Virus record (IMG/VR): IMGVR_UViG_3300046820_001896
Length of the DNA stretch: 64,000 bases
Source of the DNA: a virus
Lineage: Duplodnaviria > Heunggongvirae > Uroviricota > Caudoviricetes
Strand: one strand, 5' to 3'
The notes under the pieces were generated by a model. The model was not told the origin of the DNA and did no database searches. It worked only from the letters and a program-made list of their open reading frames with translations. Position numbers and translations under genes: made by a program. Of the stretch, positions 4,171 through 58,073 are shown one piece after another. How positions within the stretch are numbered: position 1 is the stretch's first letter; each line of letters starts with the position of its first letter.

Positions 4171-4200
4171 ATGTACAGCAGGATATTTTTGTGGTATAAT
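4171..4200 (+). promoter_or_regulatory. middle-type promoter ATGTACAG-N16-TATAAT (TGTGG extended -10)
   Basis: Shares the 17-mer AAAGTACTACATGTACA with the promoter at 1301. Confidence 0.55.
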
Positions 4201-7346: not shown

Positions 7347-7673
7347 ATGCCAGGAATTGCTAGAGTTGGTGTTGACAAAGCCGGTGGAGTAGTCACCGGT
7401 AATTTAGCTCCCACAGTTTTCGTAAATGGTTCACCTATCGTAGTGATAGGTGCAACTATTGCAGGTCACGGACTTGCTCCTCACGCTTCTCCAACTATGG
7501 TTGAAGGAGCTGTTGACGTGTTTGCGAATGGTATAGGTATATGTAGAACTGGCGATTTGGCATCGTGCGGTCATGCTATTTCAGGTTCAGATAATGTATT
7601 AACAGGATTTTACCCAAATCCGGGACCTACACGATTTGGTATTTCGAAATTTGGTGTGGAGAAACAAGGATAA
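7347..7673 (+). CDS. PAAR-repeat protein (gp5.4-like spike tip)
   Basis: 108 aa. Three PAAR-like repeats (VGD.AGG...T.N.SP.V...GA..AGHG.APH.S). Confidence 0.6.
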   Translation: MPGIARVGVDKAGGVVTGNLAPTVFVNGSPIVVIGATIAGHGLAPHASPTMVEGAVDVFANGIGICRTGDLASCGHAISGSDNVLTGFYPNPGPTRFGISKFGVEKQG

Positions 7674-10158: not shown

Positions 10159-10348
10159 TTTCTTCCCTTATTTCCACACTATATGTGTGCTTTTCTTTGT
10201 TGAACTAGATTTAGCAACTGGTTTTACAGGTGCTTTTCGTTTTTGTGGTGATTGAGCCTTAGTACAATTCAATTCGTAAAGCGTATAAAGGGATAGTGCT
10301 AAGGATATCACTGAAATTACATAAGCTACAAATGGCATATAATCCATG

Positions 10349-12292
10349 TCAATCCTTTCTGTTATATTGTGAATCAACCATATCATAGTGCACTTTATCT
10401 GAAGGACCAAATAGTCCCATACTTGCACGACGATTATCAATAGTCTTTTGATTGTTGTATACTGTAAATGGTTTGTAACCTGCCACATCTGGCATTTTTA
10501 CTTGATAAGCATCAAATCCTGGAGTAAAACCCATTGCTTGGATAACTACGTTTTGAATTTGCTTTTGCTGTTCCATATCAGCAGCTTTACCCATGTTTCC
10601 AGCTAAATTTTTACCATCCTCAACTGCTTTAGCTTTTGCTGCTGCTTCACGTCTTGCTTGAAGTTCTTGGCGTGCAGTTGGTTTTGGACTATCTGAAGTT
10701 TTACTATTATTTGTTGATGCAGTTGTTGTAGATCCACCAGAAGATGCTTGTGTATTTGATGGAGCATTTTCTTTAGGTTCTTCTTTTTTGGCTGGTGCAG
10801 GTGCTGTAGCGACTGACGTAACAGAAGTTGGTGAAGATGTGCTCGTAGAACTAACTGAAGGTGTTAAACTAACAGCAGTAGTCGCTGCTGCCGCAGGAGA
10901 CGCAGATGTAGATGTTGATGTAACAACGTTATTAACAACTGGATCTGATATCACCGCTACAGGAGTTGATGATGTATTTGTATTAGATGCTACAACTACA
11001 GTTTCGGCAACAGTAGTTGTTGTCGTAGTAGTAGGTGTGTTTTGTCTTTGTAATGCTTGTTGAGTAGCATACGCTTCACCATAATTTGGGCAACGAGTAG
11101 AATACAAACCGCTTATTGTACATTGTTGACTAAAATATGCTTCTTGATATCCTGGACAATCTGTAGCATATAACGCATTGATAGAACATTGCTGTGCTTT
11201 GTAAGCTTGTTGATAACCACTACACGTTGTAGAATATAATGGATTTAATGAACATTGTAATTCTAAATAAGCTGTCGCATAACCTGGACAGTTCACAGAA
11301 TATAGTGTATTCAATGAACATTGTTGCTCGAAGTATGCTTGTTGATAACCACTACATGTTGTAGAATATAATGGATTAATAGAGCATTGTTGTTGTAAAT
11401 AAGCAGCTTGATAACCTGGACATTGTTGACTATACAATGGATTTGTAGAGCATTGTTGTGTTAAGTGTGCAGCTGCATATCCTGGACAAGATGGATCAAA
11501 TAATGCACTTATTGTACATTGTTGAGCAGTGTAAGCAACTTGATATCCTGGACATGTTGGTGATGATAATGGATTGATGATACACATGTCAACTGGACCT
11601 GTACCATTAGGTGCTTGCCAACTAAAAATACTTGCACTTCCAGGCGTAATGTTTAAACCTCGGCCGTGATAGTATTGATAATACTCACCATTTGCCAAGT
11701 TACCAGACATACCTGAAGTAACTGCATTCCATTGTACCATGGCACCAGCAATTCGTGTATCAACTAAACCAGCAGAGTTGATTTTAATCTCAAAACTATT
11801 ACCGCCTTGTGATGAACAACATTGACTTAAATTATACCAACCATATGTCATACTATTACCTTCACGCAGGTAATATTGGTTTTGGCCATTCCAAGAATAT
11901 AAATCTGTGTGTATACCAAAAATAGAGTAATTGTAACGAGGATCTGTTGTTGTTCTTAAATCAACACCTGTACAACATAATCCATAAGCACCGCTTTGCA
12001 TTGGATCTTGGAACGTTACAACGCCATTAGTCATTGCCCATGAATTATTGAACACTCTACCAAAAAATGGAAAATCAAAACCTAATGGAACATTGCGCCA
12101 ATCGTCATCAGCTGCAGTAATATTAACTGCATTTGGATTTGTGCGAATATTTTGTAAAGGTAAAGCATTAGCGCCTGTTCCAACTGTTATCGACAATCCA
12201 GGAGGAGCACCAGGAATTTGGATCGTAACAAGTTCAGCACGTGCAACAACCGTGCTTACTAATAATAGTAAGGACACAAGTAAGCGCTTCAT
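10349..12292 (-). CDS. secreted repeat protein: N-terminal globular domain, then eight ~20-aa Cys repeats (CPGYQxAYxxQQCSxNPLYS), a Thr/Ser linker, and a C-terminal domain
   Basis: 647 aa. Signal peptide MKRLLVSLLLLVSTVVARA. Eight tandem repeats with two Cys each. Roughly 120 aa of low-complexity T/S/A/P sequence. Confidence 0.6.
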   Translation of the reverse strand: MKRLLVSLLLLVSTVVARAELVTIQIPGAPPGLSITVGTGANALPLQNIRTNPNAVNITAADDDWRNVPLGFDFPFFGRVFNNSWAMTNGVVTFQDPMQSGAYGLCCTGVDLRTTTDPRYNYSIFGIHTDLYSWNGQNQYYLREGNSMTYGWYNLSQCCSSQGGNSFEIKINSAGLVDTRIAGAMVQWNAVTSGMSGNLANGEYYQYYHGRGLNITPGSASIFSWQAPNGTGPVDMCIINPLSSPTCPGYQVAYTAQQCTISALFDPSCPGYAAAHLTQQCSTNPLYSQQCPGYQAAYLQQQCSINPLYSTTCSGYQQAYFEQQCSLNTLYSVNCPGYATAYLELQCSLNPLYSTTCSGYQQAYKAQQCSINALYATDCPGYQEAYFSQQCTISGLYSTRCPNYGEAYATQQALQRQNTPTTTTTTTVAETVVVASNTNTSSTPVAVISDPVVNNVVTSTSTSASPAAAATTAVSLTPSVSSTSTSSPTSVTSVATAPAPAKKEEPKENAPSNTQASSGGSTTTASTNNSKTSDSPKPTARQELQARREAAAKAKAVEDGKNLAGNMGKAADMEQQKQIQNVVIQAMGFTPGFDAYQVKMPDVAGYKPFTVYNNQKTIDNRRASMGLFGPSDKVHYDMVDSQYNRKD

Positions 12293-13741: not shown

Positions 13742-13771
13742 ATGTACAAACTGCAGGAAACGCTGTATAAT
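13742..13771 (+). promoter_or_regulatory. middle-type promoter ATGTACAA-N16-TATAAT
   Basis: Motif match, 32 nt upstream of 13803. Confidence 0.5.
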
Positions 13772-14150: not shown

Positions 14151-14302
14151 TGATTCGAGTAGTAATTGGTTTTCTGATAGTTTTTGGTGCAGTTGGTGGC
14201 ATGGACAGTGGTACTGATGCGCAATTACCTGCACAGATCGCTCTGGCGGTTACAGGATTGGCATTGATGTACTTTGGTACTAAAAAAATAAATGCGAATT
14301 AA
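14150..14302 (+). CDS. small two-TM membrane protein (50 aa)
   Basis: TAATG overlap. MIRVVIGFLIVFGAV...LAVTGLALMYFG. The stop lies inside the palindrome GCGAATTAATTCGC. Confidence 0.3.
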   Translation: MIRVVIGFLIVFGAVGGMDSGTDAQLPAQIALAVTGLALMYFGTKKINAN

Positions 14303-14314
14303 TTCGCAAAAAGC

Positions 14315-14344
14315 ATGTACAAACAAGAAAAAGTGTGGTATAAT
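14315..14344 (+). promoter_or_regulatory. middle-type promoter ATGTACAA-N16-TATAAT (TGTGG extended -10); near-leaderless
   Basis: The -10 ends 5 nt before ATG 14350. Confidence 0.5.
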
Positions 14345-14349
14345 TAATC

Positions 14350-14508
14350 ATGACAAAACGAAAGGTAACTCGCAAAGCAAATCCGATAGCGAAAGATTTG
14401 CGTACACCGAAGTACCGCATGCGTGTTGTCAAAAGCAAGAAAGCTTACACACGTAAGCAACGTAGTGAAATCATTAACATTGAAATGGAGTTAAATCATG
14501 GGTCGTAA
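14350..14508 (+). CDS. small basic protein (52 aa) resembling ArfA (alternative ribosome-rescue factor)
   Basis: MTKRKVTRKANPIAKDLRTPKYRMRVVKSKKAYTRKQR. The pattern N.I....P..R.RV.K.KK..Y.RK resembles the ArfA core (from memory; no search possible). Confidence 0.35.
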   Translation: MTKRKVTRKANPIAKDLRTPKYRMRVVKSKKAYTRKQRSEIINIEMELNHGS

Positions 14509-14983
14509 AGCACGTGTTTATCAAGCAGAATTTGTTCAAAAGTTCGAAGACAAGTTCTATTCAGAATTCCCTCAAGTAAAGAGTGGTGGTACATTCCTTT
14601 GGAAAGATGCAGTTAAAGTCATGCGTCAACTTGGTTTGAATCCACGTAACGGTAACGAATATCCGTTTTACTTCTTTACTAACAAAGTTTCGAAAGGCGT
14701 TTACAAAATGCCAACGAAACCAGCATTGATCGCTGGTACACCTGCAGCAACTGCAGCAAGCATCGTTAAATCGAAGCAACCAAAGGTAGCGAAGACGCCT
14801 AAAGCGACAGTAGCTCGCGTGTCCGCACCGAAAGTCACCACAGCTGTGACACGTATTAAGAAGTCAGATAAGTCCGATTCAGATATCGGCACTGGTGGAT
14901 TCGACAACGATGTATCATTCGATGACGTAGCATCTCTGCGCGGCGAATTTGGTCTCGGCGAATTCCGTAACACACTAGACTAA
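14498..14983 (+). CDS. hypothetical protein (161 aa) with basic A/K/T-rich middle
   Basis: ORF. Confidence 0.5.
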   Translation: MGRKARVYQAEFVQKFEDKFYSEFPQVKSGGTFLWKDAVKVMRQLGLNPRNGNEYPFYFFTNKVSKGVYKMPTKPALIAGTPAATAASIVKSKQPKVAKTPKATVARVSAPKVTTAVTRIKKSDKSDSDIGTGGFDNDVSFDDVASLRGEFGLGEFRNTLD

Positions 14984-15259: not shown

Positions 15260-15267
15260 GGATTTAT

Positions 15268-16065
15268 ATGAAGACATCTATGAAACTCTTGGCTATCGCA
15301 ATGGCCGTCGCTGCACTCCCAGCATGTACACGTATTGAGACTGGCGAAGTCGGTGTACGAGTTGGTTTCGATAAACAAGTTCAACAAGGCGAACTCTTGC
15401 CTGGTTCGTTCAATCAAGTGTTGATTGGTGATGTGCTTACATTCCCAATCAAAGATGTGAACGTTAAGCTCGAAGATATGACACCTGTTGCAAAAGACAA
15501 TAGCACAATGAAAGACTTCGATGCTGTTGTAATCTATAACATCAATCAAGCACAAGTCGCTGAGCTCTATAGCCAAAAGAGTCAAGCATTCCACGCTCGT
15601 CATAACGGCGACATCTATCTGATGTACAACTATATCGTTCAAACTACTCGTAATGCTATTTACAAAGAAGCACGTAAATACGAAGCATTAGACATGGCTG
15701 ACAATCGTCAAGCAATGGAACAAGCAATCAAAGAACAGATCCAGAAATCACTCGCTGAAGAAAAGCTTGATGGTAGTTTGATGATCGGTCAAGTGTTGAT
15801 TCGTAACATCGTTCCTGCTGATTCAGTCGTTGAGAGTGCAAACGCATTGGTTCGTGCAAAGAACGAACTAAAGCAAAAAGAAGTTGAAGTGCGTACAGCT
15901 AAAATGGAAGCTGAACGTATGCAAGCATTGTCCAATCAAGGTGCAAGTTCTATCGCATACATGAATGCTCAAGCTGCATTGAACATCTCTGAAGGTATTA
16001 AGAACGGTAAAGTGCAAACCATCGTTGTACCTAGCAACATGACTGGCTTGATGATTGGAAAATGA
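15268..16065 (+). CDS. SPFH/band-7 (prohibitin/HflC-like) lipoprotein, start revised to MKTSMKLL
   Basis: Lipobox LPAC after the signal peptide. SPFH core ETGEVGVRVGF...; C-terminal coiled coil. Confidence 0.6.
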   Translation: MKTSMKLLAIAMAVAALPACTRIETGEVGVRVGFDKQVQQGELLPGSFNQVLIGDVLTFPIKDVNVKLEDMTPVAKDNSTMKDFDAVVIYNINQAQVAELYSQKSQAFHARHNGDIYLMYNYIVQTTRNAIYKEARKYEALDMADNRQAMEQAIKEQIQKSLAEEKLDGSLMIGQVLIRNIVPADSVVESANALVRAKNELKQKEVEVRTAKMEAERMQALSNQGASSIAYMNAQAALNISEGIKNGKVQTIVVPSNMTGLMIGK

Positions 16066-16310
16066 TGATTATTAATAAAGATACACTCCGCAAAGAACTT
16101 AAAGAAGGTGTGAAAACGATCACCTTCACTAAGACTGATGGCACTCAACGTGTATTGAAGTGCACTCTACAAGAATTTGTGTTGCCACAAGTAGATGCTA
16201 CTAAATTAGTAACTGCCAAAAAGCAGAACGATGAAGCACTTGCAGTGTGGGACATTGAGAACGCAGGGTGGAGATCATTTAGGTATGATTCAATCATCAG
16301 CGTCGTATAA
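16062..16310 (+). CDS. hypothetical protein (82 aa)
   Basis: ORF; ATGA overlap. Confidence 0.35.
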   Translation: MMIINKDTLRKELKEGVKTITFTKTDGTQRVLKCTLQEFVLPQVDATKLVTAKKQNDEALAVWDIENAGWRSFRYDSIISVV

Positions 16311-17097: not shown

Positions 17098-18294
17098 ATG
17101 GCAACAGTAAAGATTAATGGTAAGGCTTTCAAGCCACCAAAAAAGCGTATCACAAACCCATTGATGGTTGATGAGAAGTACACTGGAGAGGAACCGATCT
17201 TTGCTGGTGTCGAATTCAAAGACGAGACTCATCGCAAAGTCTCGTTAATGAGAGCTTTTAATTATTACAACTACTTCAATAGCGGTAAACACTTTAAGAA
17301 AGACTTGATTAAATATGCTAAAGACGAACTTAAATTCAGTAAAGACAAGCTTGAATTGTTGGATAGCTCGCCTGATTGGACTGCTGAACTACAATCTGGA
17401 GCTCTTTTGCGTATGCGTAGTCGCGGTCTTGTTCTTCGCGATGCAGAGTTTAAATACATAAACAACGTTCTCGAAAAAATGATGCTTGCGACTACACGCA
17501 AGATCAAAGAAGATGCTGTTGAAGATGCAAAAGATGCAGCAAACGGTCATGTTAAACGTGAAGTCATATCAGTACAAGAACGTCTTCGAATGAAAGTGGA
17601 TGCAACTGTATTAGGCGATCTCGAAGACATGCTCGATCAATGGATTATGGGAGAATCACCATTCATTGATGTATACGAAGCAATGAAAGCAGCCATTTTA
17701 CCTGCAATGGCATCTAAACATATCATTGATTGGTCTCAAAGGCATCTTGTGGAGATTCAAGGTGCTATAAATAAGACAGATCCTCAGTTAGTTGAGGGTT
17801 ATTCTCATCTTACATTAAAACGTAAGAAAGAATTTGCATCATGGTTCGAGGGTATTATTGCAGATGCTCAGCGTTTTGGTACTAACACTAAGACTGTCCG
17901 CAAAGCCCGTACGAAAAAACCTGTATCTCTCGAGAAACAAGTCTCGAAGCTCAAATACTTGAAGGAGTCGCCCGAGCATAAATTAGTTTCGATCAATCCG
18001 TCTCTGATAATCGGTGCCACAGAGTTGTGGACTTACAATGTTAAGTACAAATCTCTAACGCGCTATATCGCTGAGTCAGGTCTTGGGTTTGAAATCAAGG
18101 GCACTTCCCTTATCAAGTTTAATACTTCCGAATCCCAAACACGTACACTACGTAAGCCTGAAGAAACGTTATCAGAGGTGCTGTCGTCTTCAAAAACGAA
18201 AGCAGCCAAACTTTTTGCTTCACTTACTACGAAGCCTAAAGAACCAAATGGACGGATCAACGAAGATACGATCATTTTAAAGGTAACTAAATGA
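17098..18294 (+). CDS. hypothetical protein (398 aa)
   Basis: Long ORF. Confidence 0.55.
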   Translation: MATVKINGKAFKPPKKRITNPLMVDEKYTGEEPIFAGVEFKDETHRKVSLMRAFNYYNYFNSGKHFKKDLIKYAKDELKFSKDKLELLDSSPDWTAELQSGALLRMRSRGLVLRDAEFKYINNVLEKMMLATTRKIKEDAVEDAKDAANGHVKREVISVQERLRMKVDATVLGDLEDMLDQWIMGESPFIDVYEAMKAAILPAMASKHIIDWSQRHLVEIQGAINKTDPQLVEGYSHLTLKRKKEFASWFEGIIADAQRFGTNTKTVRKARTKKPVSLEKQVSKLKYLKESPEHKLVSINPSLIIGATELWTYNVKYKSLTRYIAESGLGFEIKGTSLIKFNTSESQTRTLRKPEETLSEVLSSSKTKAAKLFASLTTKPKEPNGRINEDTIILKVTK

Positions 18295-18821
18295 CAGAAA
18301 TATTAATCGCGATCACTACATGGATATCGGCGTTGGTAAACCCGATTCCATTAAATGAGCAAGATGTATATTGTCTAACACGTAACGCATACTACGAAGC
18401 GAAAGGGGATTCGCAGATGTCACAGATCGCTGTGACACACGTAGTTTTAAATCGCATGAAAGATCCAGGTTTTCCTAAGAGTGCCTGCGATGTAGTCTAT
18501 CAAAAGACTAAACACGAAGCAAAGACTACATGTCAGTTTTCGTGGACATGCGATCGCCGATTAATGGGTCAACTTGCACCGCAAGAATCCGATATTTGGC
18601 AAGATTCTTTAGAATCAGTTCGTCAAGCACTAAAGATGTATTATCATCGCAATGTTGACGTAACACAAGGATCTACATTTTATCATGCGCACTATGTCAA
18701 TCCACAATGGAGAGGCGTAGAACGAGTAACAACAATTGGTAGCCACATATATTATAAGGTAAATGAAAAATGTCAGAACAACCAGAAGGCATGTTCACAA
18801 AAAAGTCGTTCAGCGATTTAG
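18291..18821 (+). CDS. SleB-like cell-wall hydrolase (Hydrolase_2 family)
   Basis: CLTRNAYYEAKGDS...IAVTHVVLNRMKD...CDVVYQ...CQFSW resembles the SleB/CwlJ hydrolase core. Confidence 0.6.
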   Translation: MTEILIAITTWISALVNPIPLNEQDVYCLTRNAYYEAKGDSQMSQIAVTHVVLNRMKDPGFPKSACDVVYQKTKHEAKTTCQFSWTCDRRLMGQLAPQESDIWQDSLESVRQALKMYYHRNVDVTQGSTFYHAHYVNPQWRGVERVTTIGSHIYYKVNEKCQNNQKACSQKSRSAI

Positions 18822-22565: not shown

Positions 22566-22595
22566 GTGTACAGCAGAGAATAAATGTGGTATAAT
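22566..22595 (+). promoter_or_regulatory. middle-type promoter GTGTACAG-N16-TATAAT
   Basis: Motif match. Confidence 0.45.
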
Positions 22596-24138: not shown

Positions 24139-24332
24139 AATCATTCCTTCATACAGAAGACATAGATCGCATCAAGGCACTGATGGAAGCCATTGATTAT
24201 GATGGTAACTTTGAGATCGAGATCGATGAATCCTCAGGCATAGGAAGGACAGTCATTGTACATGTACCATATTCAGTCAATTCATTGCGTGGTACATTTT
24301 CTTATATTATTTCAAATGTGGAGAACTGGTAA
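24132..24332 (+). CDS. hypothetical protein (66 aa)
   Basis: ORF. Confidence 0.35.
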   Translation: MVKSFLHTEDIDRIKALMEAIDYDGNFEIEIDESSGIGRTVIVHVPYSVNSLRGTFSYIISNVENW

Positions 24333-24841
24333 TGAGTAACTATGAAAAACATGCATTGATGGAATTCCGTGCTGCAGGATGGATAGATGAGAATGGTAAT
24401 TATATCGATGAGATGCAAGAGATGATTTGTCGTCATGTACTTGCATTACTTGATGTATTCGATGGTGAGGGACATAGTGGATCCTCTGCACCGTATGCTA
24501 TCAATTTATTCTCCAAACTTGCTAAGTTTGATCCTGTTGTGCCATTGACTGGTGAAGATTGGGAATGGACTGAGGTAAGCGAACGAATGGGTAGCAAGTG
24601 TTGGCAAAACAAACGATGCGGTAAGGTGTTCAAGGATGAGGATGGACGAGCATACGATATCGATGGGAAAGTTTTTTGGGAATGGAGTGGTACGAAGGAA
24701 GATCCATATAAGTCGCACTACACATGCCGAGAATCTCGTGTGTATGTCACCTTCCCATATACTCCATCGACTGAGTATGTGTATCGATACTCTGATGCCA
24801 CTCCACCTGCCCCACCACAAACAGAGCAAGGGTTACTATGA
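24332..24841 (+). CDS. hypothetical protein (169 aa)
   Basis: ORF. Confidence 0.45.
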   Translation: MSNYEKHALMEFRAAGWIDENGNYIDEMQEMICRHVLALLDVFDGEGHSGSSAPYAINLFSKLAKFDPVVPLTGEDWEWTEVSERMGSKCWQNKRCGKVFKDEDGRAYDIDGKVFWEWSGTKEDPYKSHYTCRESRVYVTFPYTPSTEYVYRYSDATPPAPPQTEQGLL

Positions 24842-28981: not shown

Positions 28982-29011
28982 ATGTACAACAATATATTTC
29001 TATGGTATAAT
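28982..29011 (+). promoter_or_regulatory. middle-type promoter ATGTACAA-N16-TATAAT
   Basis: Motif match. Confidence 0.5.
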
Positions 29012-56425: not shown

Positions 56426-57069
56426 TGATTATTGAAAACAAGATTGATGTGCTAGATACGATGTATCCTTGTTATGCTGAAAAAGTAGTAAATGCATTAT
56501 ATCACTCTAAAGCATATTGTACATTATATGGATATATTATGTCAGGAGAAGTTACATTTCCTAATGGAAGTGTAGCTGTAGAAGGGCAATATTTTTGTTA
56601 TTGGACTGGTGAAGGTGATTCTATTAGAACTACTGGTGAAGTTTACATATTCACACGCTTTGGATTCAAAGGACAAAACACCATTGGTGGTCCAATTGAA
56701 GAAAGCGGTCGTTTAGTTTATATAGATTCTTGTTCTGATAGTTTATTGGTGTATCCTCCTAGAATGGGAGATCCATCTTTAAACTTATTACAATTTCCTT
56801 CTGCTGTCAAACAATCGTATCATATCCATCCGAGCATTAGACTTGGAGTAGTTGTAAAAGGTAAAGGATATGCTTGTATCAAAAAAGCATATGAAGAAGA
56901 ACAAATTGAATTAAAGCCAGGTGTTATGTTCTGTATAGAAGAAAGAGAACAACATCGTTTTATGACAACATACGATGAAATGACAGTTATAGCATTCCAT
57001 CCAGACGGTGATTGGGGTCCAACTGATCATAATCACACAATGTTAAACAGAACATATATTACGAAATAA
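56425..57069 (+). CDS. cupin-fold protein (214 aa)
   Basis: YHIHPS...G..Y...E...H two-motif cupin pattern; HPDGDWGPTDHNH. Confidence 0.45.
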   Translation: MIIENKIDVLDTMYPCYAEKVVNALYHSKAYCTLYGYIMSGEVTFPNGSVAVEGQYFCYWTGEGDSIRTTGEVYIFTRFGFKGQNTIGGPIEESGRLVYIDSCSDSLLVYPPRMGDPSLNLLQFPSAVKQSYHIHPSIRLGVVVKGKGYACIKKAYEEEQIELKPGVMFCIEEREQHRFMTTYDEMTVIAFHPDGDWGPTDHNHTMLNRTYITK

Positions 57070-57441: not shown

Positions 57442-58073
57442 TGTCTTTACGCAACAAAGGTAAAGCTGGTTATATTGGATACGACCGTGTTAGTAGTCCT
57501 GATGTTGGAAGCGGTATATGGAACTTAAACCAACATCACACAGCTGTATCTGATTATAGTTGGGCTGGTCAGTCTGTATACACAAACTATGATGGAAATT
57601 TAAATGGTTTTACTGTTAGCGGAGCTACTACTAGCAGTAATGCCATATATGTTCCAGGAAATAGTTATGCATATAGAGATATGATATCTCCGTTCACTAG
57701 TTTATTATTTAAAACAATGACTTTTGAAGTTTATATTAGCGGCGGAGTATGTGGTGTATTAATTGGAAGTTCTACTGCCGGTAGAGGACCTTTATTAAAA
57801 CTAGATGCACGTGGCGGCAGTAATTATAGCGGTATGATGTTCCAAACTTCTTGGACTGTTAGAGGTGATCCTCCAGTTACCGGTGTGCAATTACCAGCGA
57901 ATTCATGGGTACCTGTGCGACTAGAAGTTAATAATGCGATGCGTATTGACTGGTCTGCAAATAATAGGTATGATCGTCAACCTATTCTTTTATCTGGTCC
58001 ATTTATTACATTCCTTGGATTAGGCGGCGGCGGTTATTTTAGAAATATTAGAGTTTATAATGGTGTATCATAA
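57441..58073 (+). CDS. hypothetical beta-rich protein (210 aa); N-terminal GIWNLNQ motif shared with the next gene
   Basis: ATGA overlap. The shared motif is SGIWNLNQ here and NGIWHLKQ in the next gene. Confidence 0.45.
   Translation: MSLRNKGKAGYIGYDRVSSPDVGSGIWNLNQHHTAVSDYSWAGQSVYTNYDGNLNGFTVSGATTSSNAIYVPGNSYAYRDMISPFTSLLFKTMTFEVYISGGVCGVLIGSSTAGRGPLLKLDARGGSNYSGMMFQTSWTVRGDPPVTGVQLPANSWVPVRLEVNNAMRIDWSANNRYDRQPILLSGPFITFLGLGGGGYFRNIRVYNGVS

Follow-up and report, generated by a model that had tools for sequence, protein, structure and literature searches.

A short ArfA-like gene behind an early promoter in an uncultured T4-like myophage, probably expressed from a leaderless mRNA

INTRODUCTION

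Non-stop ribosome rescue is essential in bacteria. Here we analyze a gene that may carry a shortened, phage-borne form of this function, a plus-strand open reading frame (ORF) of 52 amino acids (aa) in a 64,000-nucleotide (nt) stretch of DNA from an uncultured tailed phage (Caudoviricetes; IMG/VR record IMGVR_UViG_3300046820_001896), the whole of which is called the window below. Its closest described counterpart is ArfA (E. coli YhdL; PDB 5U4I, 5MDV, 5H5U), which is small, basic, and intrinsically disordered like the window peptide and homologous to it over ArfA residues 14-45. In E. coli ArfA, His21-Glu30 are placed in the A site with Pro23 stacking on A1492/A1493, while residues 31-48 occupy the mRNA tunnel, and activity is lost when the protein is truncated after Met40 (PMC5378476). 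Residues 2-16 form a minidomain that is folded only once RF2 opens, the patch of Leu19, Leu24, and Phe25 binds Trp319, Val198, and Phe217 of RF2, and in the A18T mutant RF2 still binds while release is abolished (PMC5378476). The C-terminal tails of SmpB and ArfB (YaeJ), together with BrfA and ArfT, are functional analogues in which the empty mRNA tunnel is sensed by an unstructured, basic tail. Of these, BrfA and ArfT work by recruiting RF2, or either RF1 or RF2 (PMC8012679, PMC6299226), and ArfB has its own GGQ hydrolase domain, which a peptide of 52 aa cannot hold.

Several ArfAs are phage-encoded like the window ORF, namely gp30 of pelagiphage HTVC027P, RXM gp10, and the J2-1 and Bambus proteins, all of them annotation-level assignments. 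The annotation of RXM gp10 is mentioned in one report (PMC8953757), and a transcriptome paper reports that HTVC027P gp30 is highly expressed at an early time of infection (3 h) and once more at late times (12-15 h) (PMC12753301). In the literature searched, phage ArfA appeared in annotation-level mentions only and no functional study was found. A further group, the Pfam family DUF7230, which corresponds to PHROG 20887 and includes Acinetobacter phage Ac42 gp003, has the core motif RNPIAK..RTP.[YF]...VV in common with the window ORF; a literature search for DUF7230 found no paper.

RESULTS

Gene and protein family

A preliminary description of this DNA had reported a 52-aa ORF with an ATG start on the plus strand, and reading of the window sequence confirmed it, with MTKRKVTRKANPIAKDLRTPKYRMRVVKSKKAYTRKQRSEIINIEMELNHGS as the translation. 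The span given at that time, 14315-14508, is correct at its end, but its start belongs to the promoter, and the ORF itself begins at 14350. The gene, its parts, and the gene that follows it are located as follows.

14350-14508, plus strand: gene for the 52-aa short ArfA-like protein, ATG start, stop codon TAA at 14506-14508 (phrog_20887 match; hhalign to ArfA)
14380-14457, plus strand: conserved core N11-K36, NPIAKDLRTPKYRMRVVKSKKAYTRK (hhalign alignment and per-column comparison; the ArfA hidden Markov model [HMM] aligns L17-Q37)
14458-14505, plus strand: non-basic C-terminal tail QRSEIINIEMELNHGS, variable across the family
14498-14983, plus strand: downstream 161-aa gene, overlapping the small ORF by 11 nt, with its own GGAG Shine-Dalgarno sequence and co-transcribed with the small ORF

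The final codons of the tail hold the ribosome-binding site and the start of the next gene, and both GGAG (14487-14490) and ATG (14498) are invariant in relatives at the nucleotide level. The synteny of the small ORF and the 161-aa gene is kept in four related loci (L004, L006, L014, and L016), and the 161-aa protein has no Pfam or PHROG match. AlphaFold2 prediction of the 52-aa product gave a mean local confidence (pLDDT) of 66.6 and a predicted template modeling score (pTM) of 0.25, with the core as coil and a low-confidence helix at residues 35-50. This lack of a fold is expected of a peptide that becomes ordered only once bound to its target, and ArfA off the ribosome is likewise disordered. 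At the RNA level, an RNase III/terminator hairpin resembling that of arfA was not found (folding of 14350-14530, z = -1.0), nor did the locus show an Rfam match or a long inverted repeat; the lone hairpin within the ORF comprises 6 bp at 14443-14458 and is not conserved in L006. E. coli arfA is under regulation coupled to transfer-messenger RNA (tmRNA) (PMC8012679). Since the window gene ends with an in-frame TAA and lacks an arfA-style hairpin, this mode of control is not applicable to it.

A homologue search of 5.8 billion proteins yielded 74 homologues of 32-70 aa, nearly all of which are unnamed metagenomic or phage proteins. They share the near-invariant core NPIAKDLRTPKYRMRVV, with the family consensus RNPIAKDLRTPKYRMRVVxSKKxYxRK. 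In the family alignment, residues A14, D16, L17, R18, P20, K21, Y22, and R25 are invariant, and conservation reaches at least 90% at N11, K15, T19, V26, V27, and R35. The ORF matches phrog_20887, whose function is not assigned, with E = 9.4e-7, and among 64 aligned homologues 48 match DUF7230 while three weakly match ArfA (best E = 0.045). Comparison of the 21-codon core across five syntenic loci with 53-90% protein identity revealed near-saturated synonymous differences (pS 0.56-0.86) against very few nonsynonymous ones (pN 0.02-0.08). The small ORF is a genuine gene under strong constraint. A tblastn search with the ORF located the family in 102 phage records, including 69 of Acinetobacter phages, 9 of Sinorhizobium, 6 of Roseobacter, 5 each of Agrobacterium and Rhizobium, 2 of Pelagibacter, and others; in the Acinetobacter T4-like phages the homologue is situated in the early region, beside rIIA.

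Relationship to ArfA

For profile comparison, we assembled 150 diverse ArfA representatives from a 50%-identity library, in which 205 proteins had E<=0.001; this library was used because a search of 90%-identity clusters with E. coli ArfA listed just close enterobacterial sequences. Together with E. coli ArfA, whose sequence was checked against the PDB, 113 of the representatives formed an alignment of 114 sequences. Comparison of the window family with this alignment by hhalign gave a probability of 90.4% (P = 1.4e-6, score 32.1) over 33 columns with 42% identity, pairing window residues 9-41 with ArfA 12-47 across one 3-residue gap. Within this, the core is paired with E. coli ArfA N14-K42, minus three residues (GKG). 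As a composition control, 300 shuffles of the family column order scored 8.3 on average (standard deviation 1.8, maximum 15.8), and a reversed alignment scored 10.0 as compared to 28.3 for the real core. The HMM built from the ArfA alignment gave the window ORF 9.8 bits, a value reached by one of 5,000 residue shuffles, and in the opposite direction the family HMM gave bona fide ArfAs up to 18.8 bits, for example P0282, which carries ...VLRTPMFKQRVVKARKGKGSYQR (also ...AVLRTPMFKQRVVKARKGKGSYQR). Homology of the window family to ArfA is thus well supported by these profile comparisons, and the resemblance to ArfA noticed in the preliminary description depends on residue order.

Analysis of the alignment column by column indicated that the ArfA positions N14, I/L16, L/V20, P23, F/Y25, R26, R28, V29, K31, K33, K34, Y39, R41, and K42 are retained. 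The A-site middle region, consisting of Pro23 and the F25-R26-x-R28-V29 strand, is kept, with P20, Y22, and R25 of the window numbering invariant, R23 at 87%, and V26 at 90%; His21 is replaced by Arg in all members, and Glu30 by Val in the family. Past this region, where ArfA has the basic tunnel motif KKGKGSY-x-RK-x-KH, the window tail offers K28, K30, K31, Y33, R35, K36, and R38 as basic residues plus Tyr. The 'KH' of ArfA K44-H45 is kept in the family consensus, and the window ORF has RS there. The preliminary description had equated the core with the part of ArfA that occupies the empty mRNA channel; this agrees with the tunnel tail, but the match also spans the A-site middle region from Pro23 to Glu30, so that the core is not confined to the channel.

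Natural intermediates, as placed by sequence scores, bridge the window family and ArfA. A tblastn search with E. coli ArfA revealed ArfA-like genes in Salmonella phage Arash, Pseudomonas phage pf16, Pseudoalteromonas phage J2-1, Citromicrobium phage RXM, and Brevundimonas phage Bambus. On the HMM of the ArfA alignment, the phage proteins form a graded series, with 76 bits for Arash, 73 for pf16, 41 for J2-1, 38 for an ORF of phage CRP-212, 30 for RXM gp10, 20 for HTVC027P gp30, and 2-13 for the window's family. On Pfam ArfA, the CRP-212 ORF (MRQKNPVAKILRTPRYRQRKVMPKKGKGSYKR...) and RXM gp10 are above the threshold with 33.3 and 29.6 bits, and HTVC027P gp30 is below it with 20.2 bits. The J2-1 protein exceeds the thresholds of both families (ArfA 41.3 bits, DUF7230 28.6 bits). 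HTVC027P gp30, annotated as ArfA, has the NPVAKEVRTPKY half of the window ORF; this protein and RXM gp10 keep the KKG[KR]GS[FY] insert of ArfA, whereas J2-1 and the window ORF are without it.

Some of these phage genes were labeled differently or not at all. Arash gp99c (L009 517-741) is labeled 'ribosomal protein L2', yet it is a canonical ArfA with 63% identity to E. coli ArfA residues 4-41, the 76 bits being obtained from its internal Met28 onward. The ArfA-like ORF of pf16 (L010, about 595-735) has no annotation. Roseobacter phage CRP-212 (L001 1489-1614) and CRP-13 (L002 1489-1614) carry unannotated 41-aa ArfA-like ORFs, which lie out of frame within acidic stretches of the larger annotated gp38 and gp52, adjoining the coat gene; it is possible that these are overlapping genes or that the long ORFs were mis-called. 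A large protein-database search with the 41-aa CRP-212 ORF returned no match, as the query shares too few exact words.

A further set of intermediates came from bacterial chromosomes. Scanning one genome per bacterial species for KDLRTPKY gave 27 loci, among which are the following ORFs of 35-44 aa containing IAKDLRTPKY.

L025 1501-1635 (SAR86): short ArfA-like ORF
L033 1498-1614 (SAR11): short ArfA-like ORF
L032 1498-1605 (SAR11): short ArfA-like ORF
L036 1427-1534 (SAR11): short ArfA-like ORF

SAR11 ORFs such as MKKKNFIAKDLRTPKYKKRVVKPKKGKGSFQRK contain the window's N-terminal half IAKDLRTPKY verbatim together with the C-terminal ArfA hallmark KKGKGSF, and three of them are above the Pfam ArfA threshold of 25.5 with 31.6, 32.1, and 26.4 bits. 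The window ORF deviates from the SAR11 ORFs mainly through the 3-residue GKG deletion. The SAR86 short ORF overlaps the end of tatC (TatC, 189 bits), and the SAR11 short ORF has a Trans_reg_C regulator on one side and a PfkB kinase on the other. Reviews place ArfA only in some beta- and gammaproteobacteria (PMC8012679), and because a 2024 survey reported arfA in 0 of 2,376 alphaproteobacterial genomes (PMC11633108), these short chromosomal genes appear to have been overlooked. Further short ArfA-like ORFs of this kind were observed in L018-L020, L024, L026, L028, L029, and L043.

Promoter and start codon

The gene is preceded by a promoter whose -10 element nearly abuts the start codon. The elements of this region and the related promoter sites in the window are as follows.

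14316-14344, plus strand: early sigma-70-type promoter, with -35 TGTACA at 14316-14321, a 17-nt spacer, and extended -10 TGgTATAAT at 14336-14344
14345-14349, plus strand: 5-nt discriminator TAATC between -10 and ATG, without a Shine-Dalgarno sequence; a leaderless or near-leaderless start is predicted
1312-1340, 4172-4200, 13743-13771, 14316-14344, 22567-22595, and 28983-29011, plus strand: TGTACA-N16-17-TATAAT sites from the motif scan, mostly with the extended -10 TG
56496-56523, minus strand: TGTACA-N16-17-TATAAT site from the motif scan
14293-14308, no strand assigned: perfect 16-nt palindrome TGCGAATTAATTCGCA between the preceding small membrane-protein ORF and the promoter

A consensus scan showed that the promoter at 14316-14344 matches at 10 of 12 positions and has the TG. 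TGTACA-N16-18-TATAAT occurs seven times in the window against 0.09 expected, and this repeated motif, which we liken to T4-type early promoters, is probably the early promoter set of this phage. With the looser pattern TACA-N16-18-TATAAT, further sites appear that end at 10343 and 19608 on the plus strand, plus one at 57553-57578 on the minus strand. Six other plus-strand promoters are of this kind, five of them with the full motif and one through the looser TACA; their leaders are 24-45 nt long, and in five of these six leaders a Shine-Dalgarno sequence of the AAGGA or GAGG type stands shortly before the ATG. Among the window promoters of this type, only that of the small ArfA-like gene has its ATG 5 nt past the -10 element without a Shine-Dalgarno sequence.

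Comparison with the relatives L004-L008, L014, and L016 revealed that the -10 element and its spacing to the ATG are kept, while the sequence farther upstream is replaced. In four diverged lineages the spacer is 5 nt (TAATC, ATATC) or 6 nt (ATTACT, ACTATT) long, so its length is kept and its sequence is not, and L014 and L016 have the A of their start codon at the canonical +1. The near-leaderless start proposed in the preliminary description, with the ATG 5 nt after the -10 element, is supported by this conservation, and its 5-6 nt geometry extends to all four lineages. Because this spacing is maintained without a Shine-Dalgarno sequence even where the letters of the spacer differ, the mRNA is likely leaderless, with its 5' end at the A of AUG. 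In contrast to this fusion of promoter and ATG, the family members in Ac42 and in a T7-like contig have ordinary Shine-Dalgarno leaders, which suggests that leaderless expression belongs to this phage clade and not to the family. The palindrome upstream has a T-run on the minus strand only and is terminator-like there, whereas the flanking genes are on the plus strand; GGGGCCCC stands in its place in L006-L008.

Genomic context

The source is an uncultured T4-like myophage, whose gp6 baseplate wedge shares 42% identity with its counterpart in Methylophilales phage Melnitz and 40% with the one in pelagiphage HTVC008M; gp59 and gp32 are also present in the window. A 3.3-kb segment around the gene had no megablast match among phage GenBank records, indicating that the phage has no close sequenced relative. 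The gene belongs to a plus-strand block made up of small early and accessory genes. Scanned against Pfam and PHROG, the neighboring ORFs (115, 56, 161, 92, and 169 aa) gave DUFs or nothing, so the immediate context provides no functional clue. Other features of the window are as follows.

53-2891: 12 tRNA genes (Met, Thr x2, Pro, Gly x2, Leu, Arg, Ile[tat], Trp, Lys, and His)
24332-24841, plus strand: 169-aa homologue of Tad3, the type I Thoeris inhibitor (Pfam, 124 bits)
15262-16065: SPFH/Band 7 gene
16062-16310: WYL_2 (Sm-like SH3) gene
18291-18821: cell-wall hydrolase gene
7347-7673: PAAR-motif gene

The Tad3 homologue is likely an anti-defense gene. No tmRNA was found in the window. Downstream of the ArfA-like gene, the order Band_7 - WYL_2 is kept in related contigs. 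A 647-aa protein encoded at 10349-12292 on the minus strand carries a signal peptide and some ten Cys-rich repeats, each of roughly 20 aa (QQCSxNPLYSxxCxGYxxAY), with a Thr/Ser-rich region after them; Pfam gave no match for it, and it is maintained in syntenic relatives.

DISCUSSION

We favor, with a probability of about 60%, the reading that the peptide is a phage-borne, shortened rescue factor of the ArfA superfamily, which would free ribosomes on broken mRNAs. Host RNA polymerase would transcribe the gene at the very start of infection from the early promoter, probably as a leaderless mRNA, and the unstructured basic peptide would bind ribosomes left without mRNA in the channel. These non-stop complexes should accumulate as phage or host nucleases cleave host and phage mRNAs. 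Peptidyl-tRNA would then be released via a class-I release factor, and the ribosomes would again be available for making phage proteins. The neighborhood, which supports translation and host takeover through the 12 tRNAs, the Tad3 homologue, and gp59/gp32, counts in favor of the rescue reading as contextual evidence. Compared with ArfA of E. coli, the window gene differs in being phage-borne, in its early promoter and probably leaderless mRNA, and in ending at an ordinary stop codon and lacking an RNase III hairpin.

A number of results weigh against this reading and bear on its rivals. In direct searches, Pfam ArfA (PF03889) aligned ORF residues 18-39 to profile positions 19-43 with 11.8 bits and E = 0.17, short of the gathering threshold of 25.5, and DUF7230 (PF23876) gave 15.8 bits and E = 0.015 against a cut-off of 27. 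The NCBIfam search of the ORF had no match, pairwise BLASTP produced no alignment with E. coli ArfA, and the family profile did not retrieve E. coli ArfA from the PDB sequences at E<=10. Within the protein, the minidomain positions G9, I11, and D13 are missing, with merely about ten basic residues before N11; ArfA A18 is Lys in 90% of the family; and in the RF2 patch L19 is Asp and L24 is Lys in all members, only F25 being kept, as Tyr. The tunnel tail is shortened as well, in that GKG is gone and three basic residues past the Tyr are followed by an acidic/hydrophobic end. No experiment on any member of the short clade was found in the literature searched. The preliminary description had taken an insignificant PF03889 match, explained by generic Lys/Arg richness, as the outcome that would speak against ArfA. 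The match is indeed insignificant, but Lys/Arg richness is excluded as its explanation because the hhalign score beats all column shuffles, only one of 5,000 residue shuffles reaches the HMM score, and intermediates exist. For the same reasons, we consider it very improbable that the resemblance is due to chance or convergence in a generic basic RNA- or DNA-binding peptide unlinked to ArfA. The weak direct Pfam score is in keeping with that explanation, and in one version of it the peptide would mimic the N-terminus of the ribosomal protein uS14 of type Z (uS14-Z; IAK..RTPK[YF]): the uS14-Z N-terminus AKKSMIAKQKRTPKYA is the top PDB match of the family profile (E = 0.65 over 16 residues), and the N-terminal 17-mer of Listeria uS14 reaches 16.4 bits on the family HMM. 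However, hhalign of the family against verified uS14-Z sequences gave a probability of 1.9% and a score of 14.6, which is inside the shuffle range, and the family HMM gave 6.7 bits for uS14-Z of T. thermophilus, -0.5 for M. smegmatis, and -1.4 for M. tuberculosis, whereas the comparison with ArfA lies far outside that range and natural intermediates exceed the Pfam ArfA threshold. We rejected uS14-Z mimicry or homology, since the likeness is a short local motif with no family-wide similarity beyond RTPK[YF].

Without the minidomain and with two of the three RF2-patch residues lost, engagement of the release factor must differ from that of E. coli ArfA. In the alignment, the predicted ribosome-docking half is conserved and the predicted RF2-activating half is remodeled with invariant, not degenerate, residues. 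These features would also suit a rescue blocker or ribosome plug, which docks like ArfA but cannot activate a release factor and, similar to ArfA(A18T), holds stalled or vacant ribosomes or RF2 inactive and excludes tmRNA-SmpB, ArfA, and ArfB, for host shut-off or for countering a host response. The A18T mutant of E. coli is a precedent for RF2 binding without catalysis (PMC5378476), and expression from an early promoter is typical of host-takeover genes. We nevertheless regard this alternative as unlikely. D16, R18, T19, and K21 are invariant across phages of alpha-, beta-, and gammaproteobacterial hosts, suggesting that a specific contact is preserved rather than a function lost; the phage itself needs working ribosomes; and the conserved short form in the housekeeping context of SAR86 and SAR11 chromosomes is hard to square with an inhibitor of an essential process. 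Because it occupies an ordinary chromosomal context in such streamlined genomes, a non-toxic cellular role is suggested by its sequence setting. A separate alternative, rather unlikely in our view, concerns expression: the promoter at 14316-14344 could serve mainly the 161-aa gene, with transcription beginning at or after the T or G of the ATG and the small ORF weakly translated from read-through rather than leaderless. The 5-nt spacer puts the A of the ATG at position 6 past the -10 element, one base before the start most often chosen by sigma-70 polymerase; the 161-aa gene, moreover, has its own GGAG Shine-Dalgarno sequence. Against this stand the spacing maintained despite a changing spacer sequence and the canonical +1 position of the A in L014 and L016, while longer transcripts would offer the small ORF no Shine-Dalgarno sequence and the strong purifying selection shows that the small protein gets made.

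Beyond the rescue reading itself, a tentative extension, which we think possible but doubtful, is that the AKDLRTPKY short-ArfA clade, comprising the window ORF, DUF7230 proteins of many phages, and the 35-44 aa chromosomal genes of SAR11 and SAR86, is a mechanistically distinct minimal rescue factor. It would combine ArfA-like docking with different contacts to the release machinery, possibly to RF1 as well as RF2, across alpha-, beta-, and gammaproteobacterial hosts. If true, a portable, host-independent ribosome-recycling module on a leaderless early mRNA would explain why a nearly identical peptide is found in phages of very different hosts.

Phage ArfA annotations were already known; what is new, as far as sequence comparison indicates, is a phage ArfA that is short, lacks GKG, is probably expressed without a leader, and escapes current profiles. 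DUF7230, a Pfam family of unknown function that is common in phages, is now tied to ArfA. Its carriers include the 69 Acinetobacter phage records, and phages are being studied as therapeutics; the short form is also present in the chromosomes of SAR11 and SAR86, which are among the most abundant marine bacteria. If inactive in release, the peptide would be a natural rescue inhibitor, of interest as rescue pathways are antibiotic targets. If active, it would be a minimal ArfA without the known RF2-activating parts, making it directly testable what a release factor requires in order to act independently of a codon, and ribosome rescue would join tRNAs and tmRNA among the translation functions that phages bring with them.

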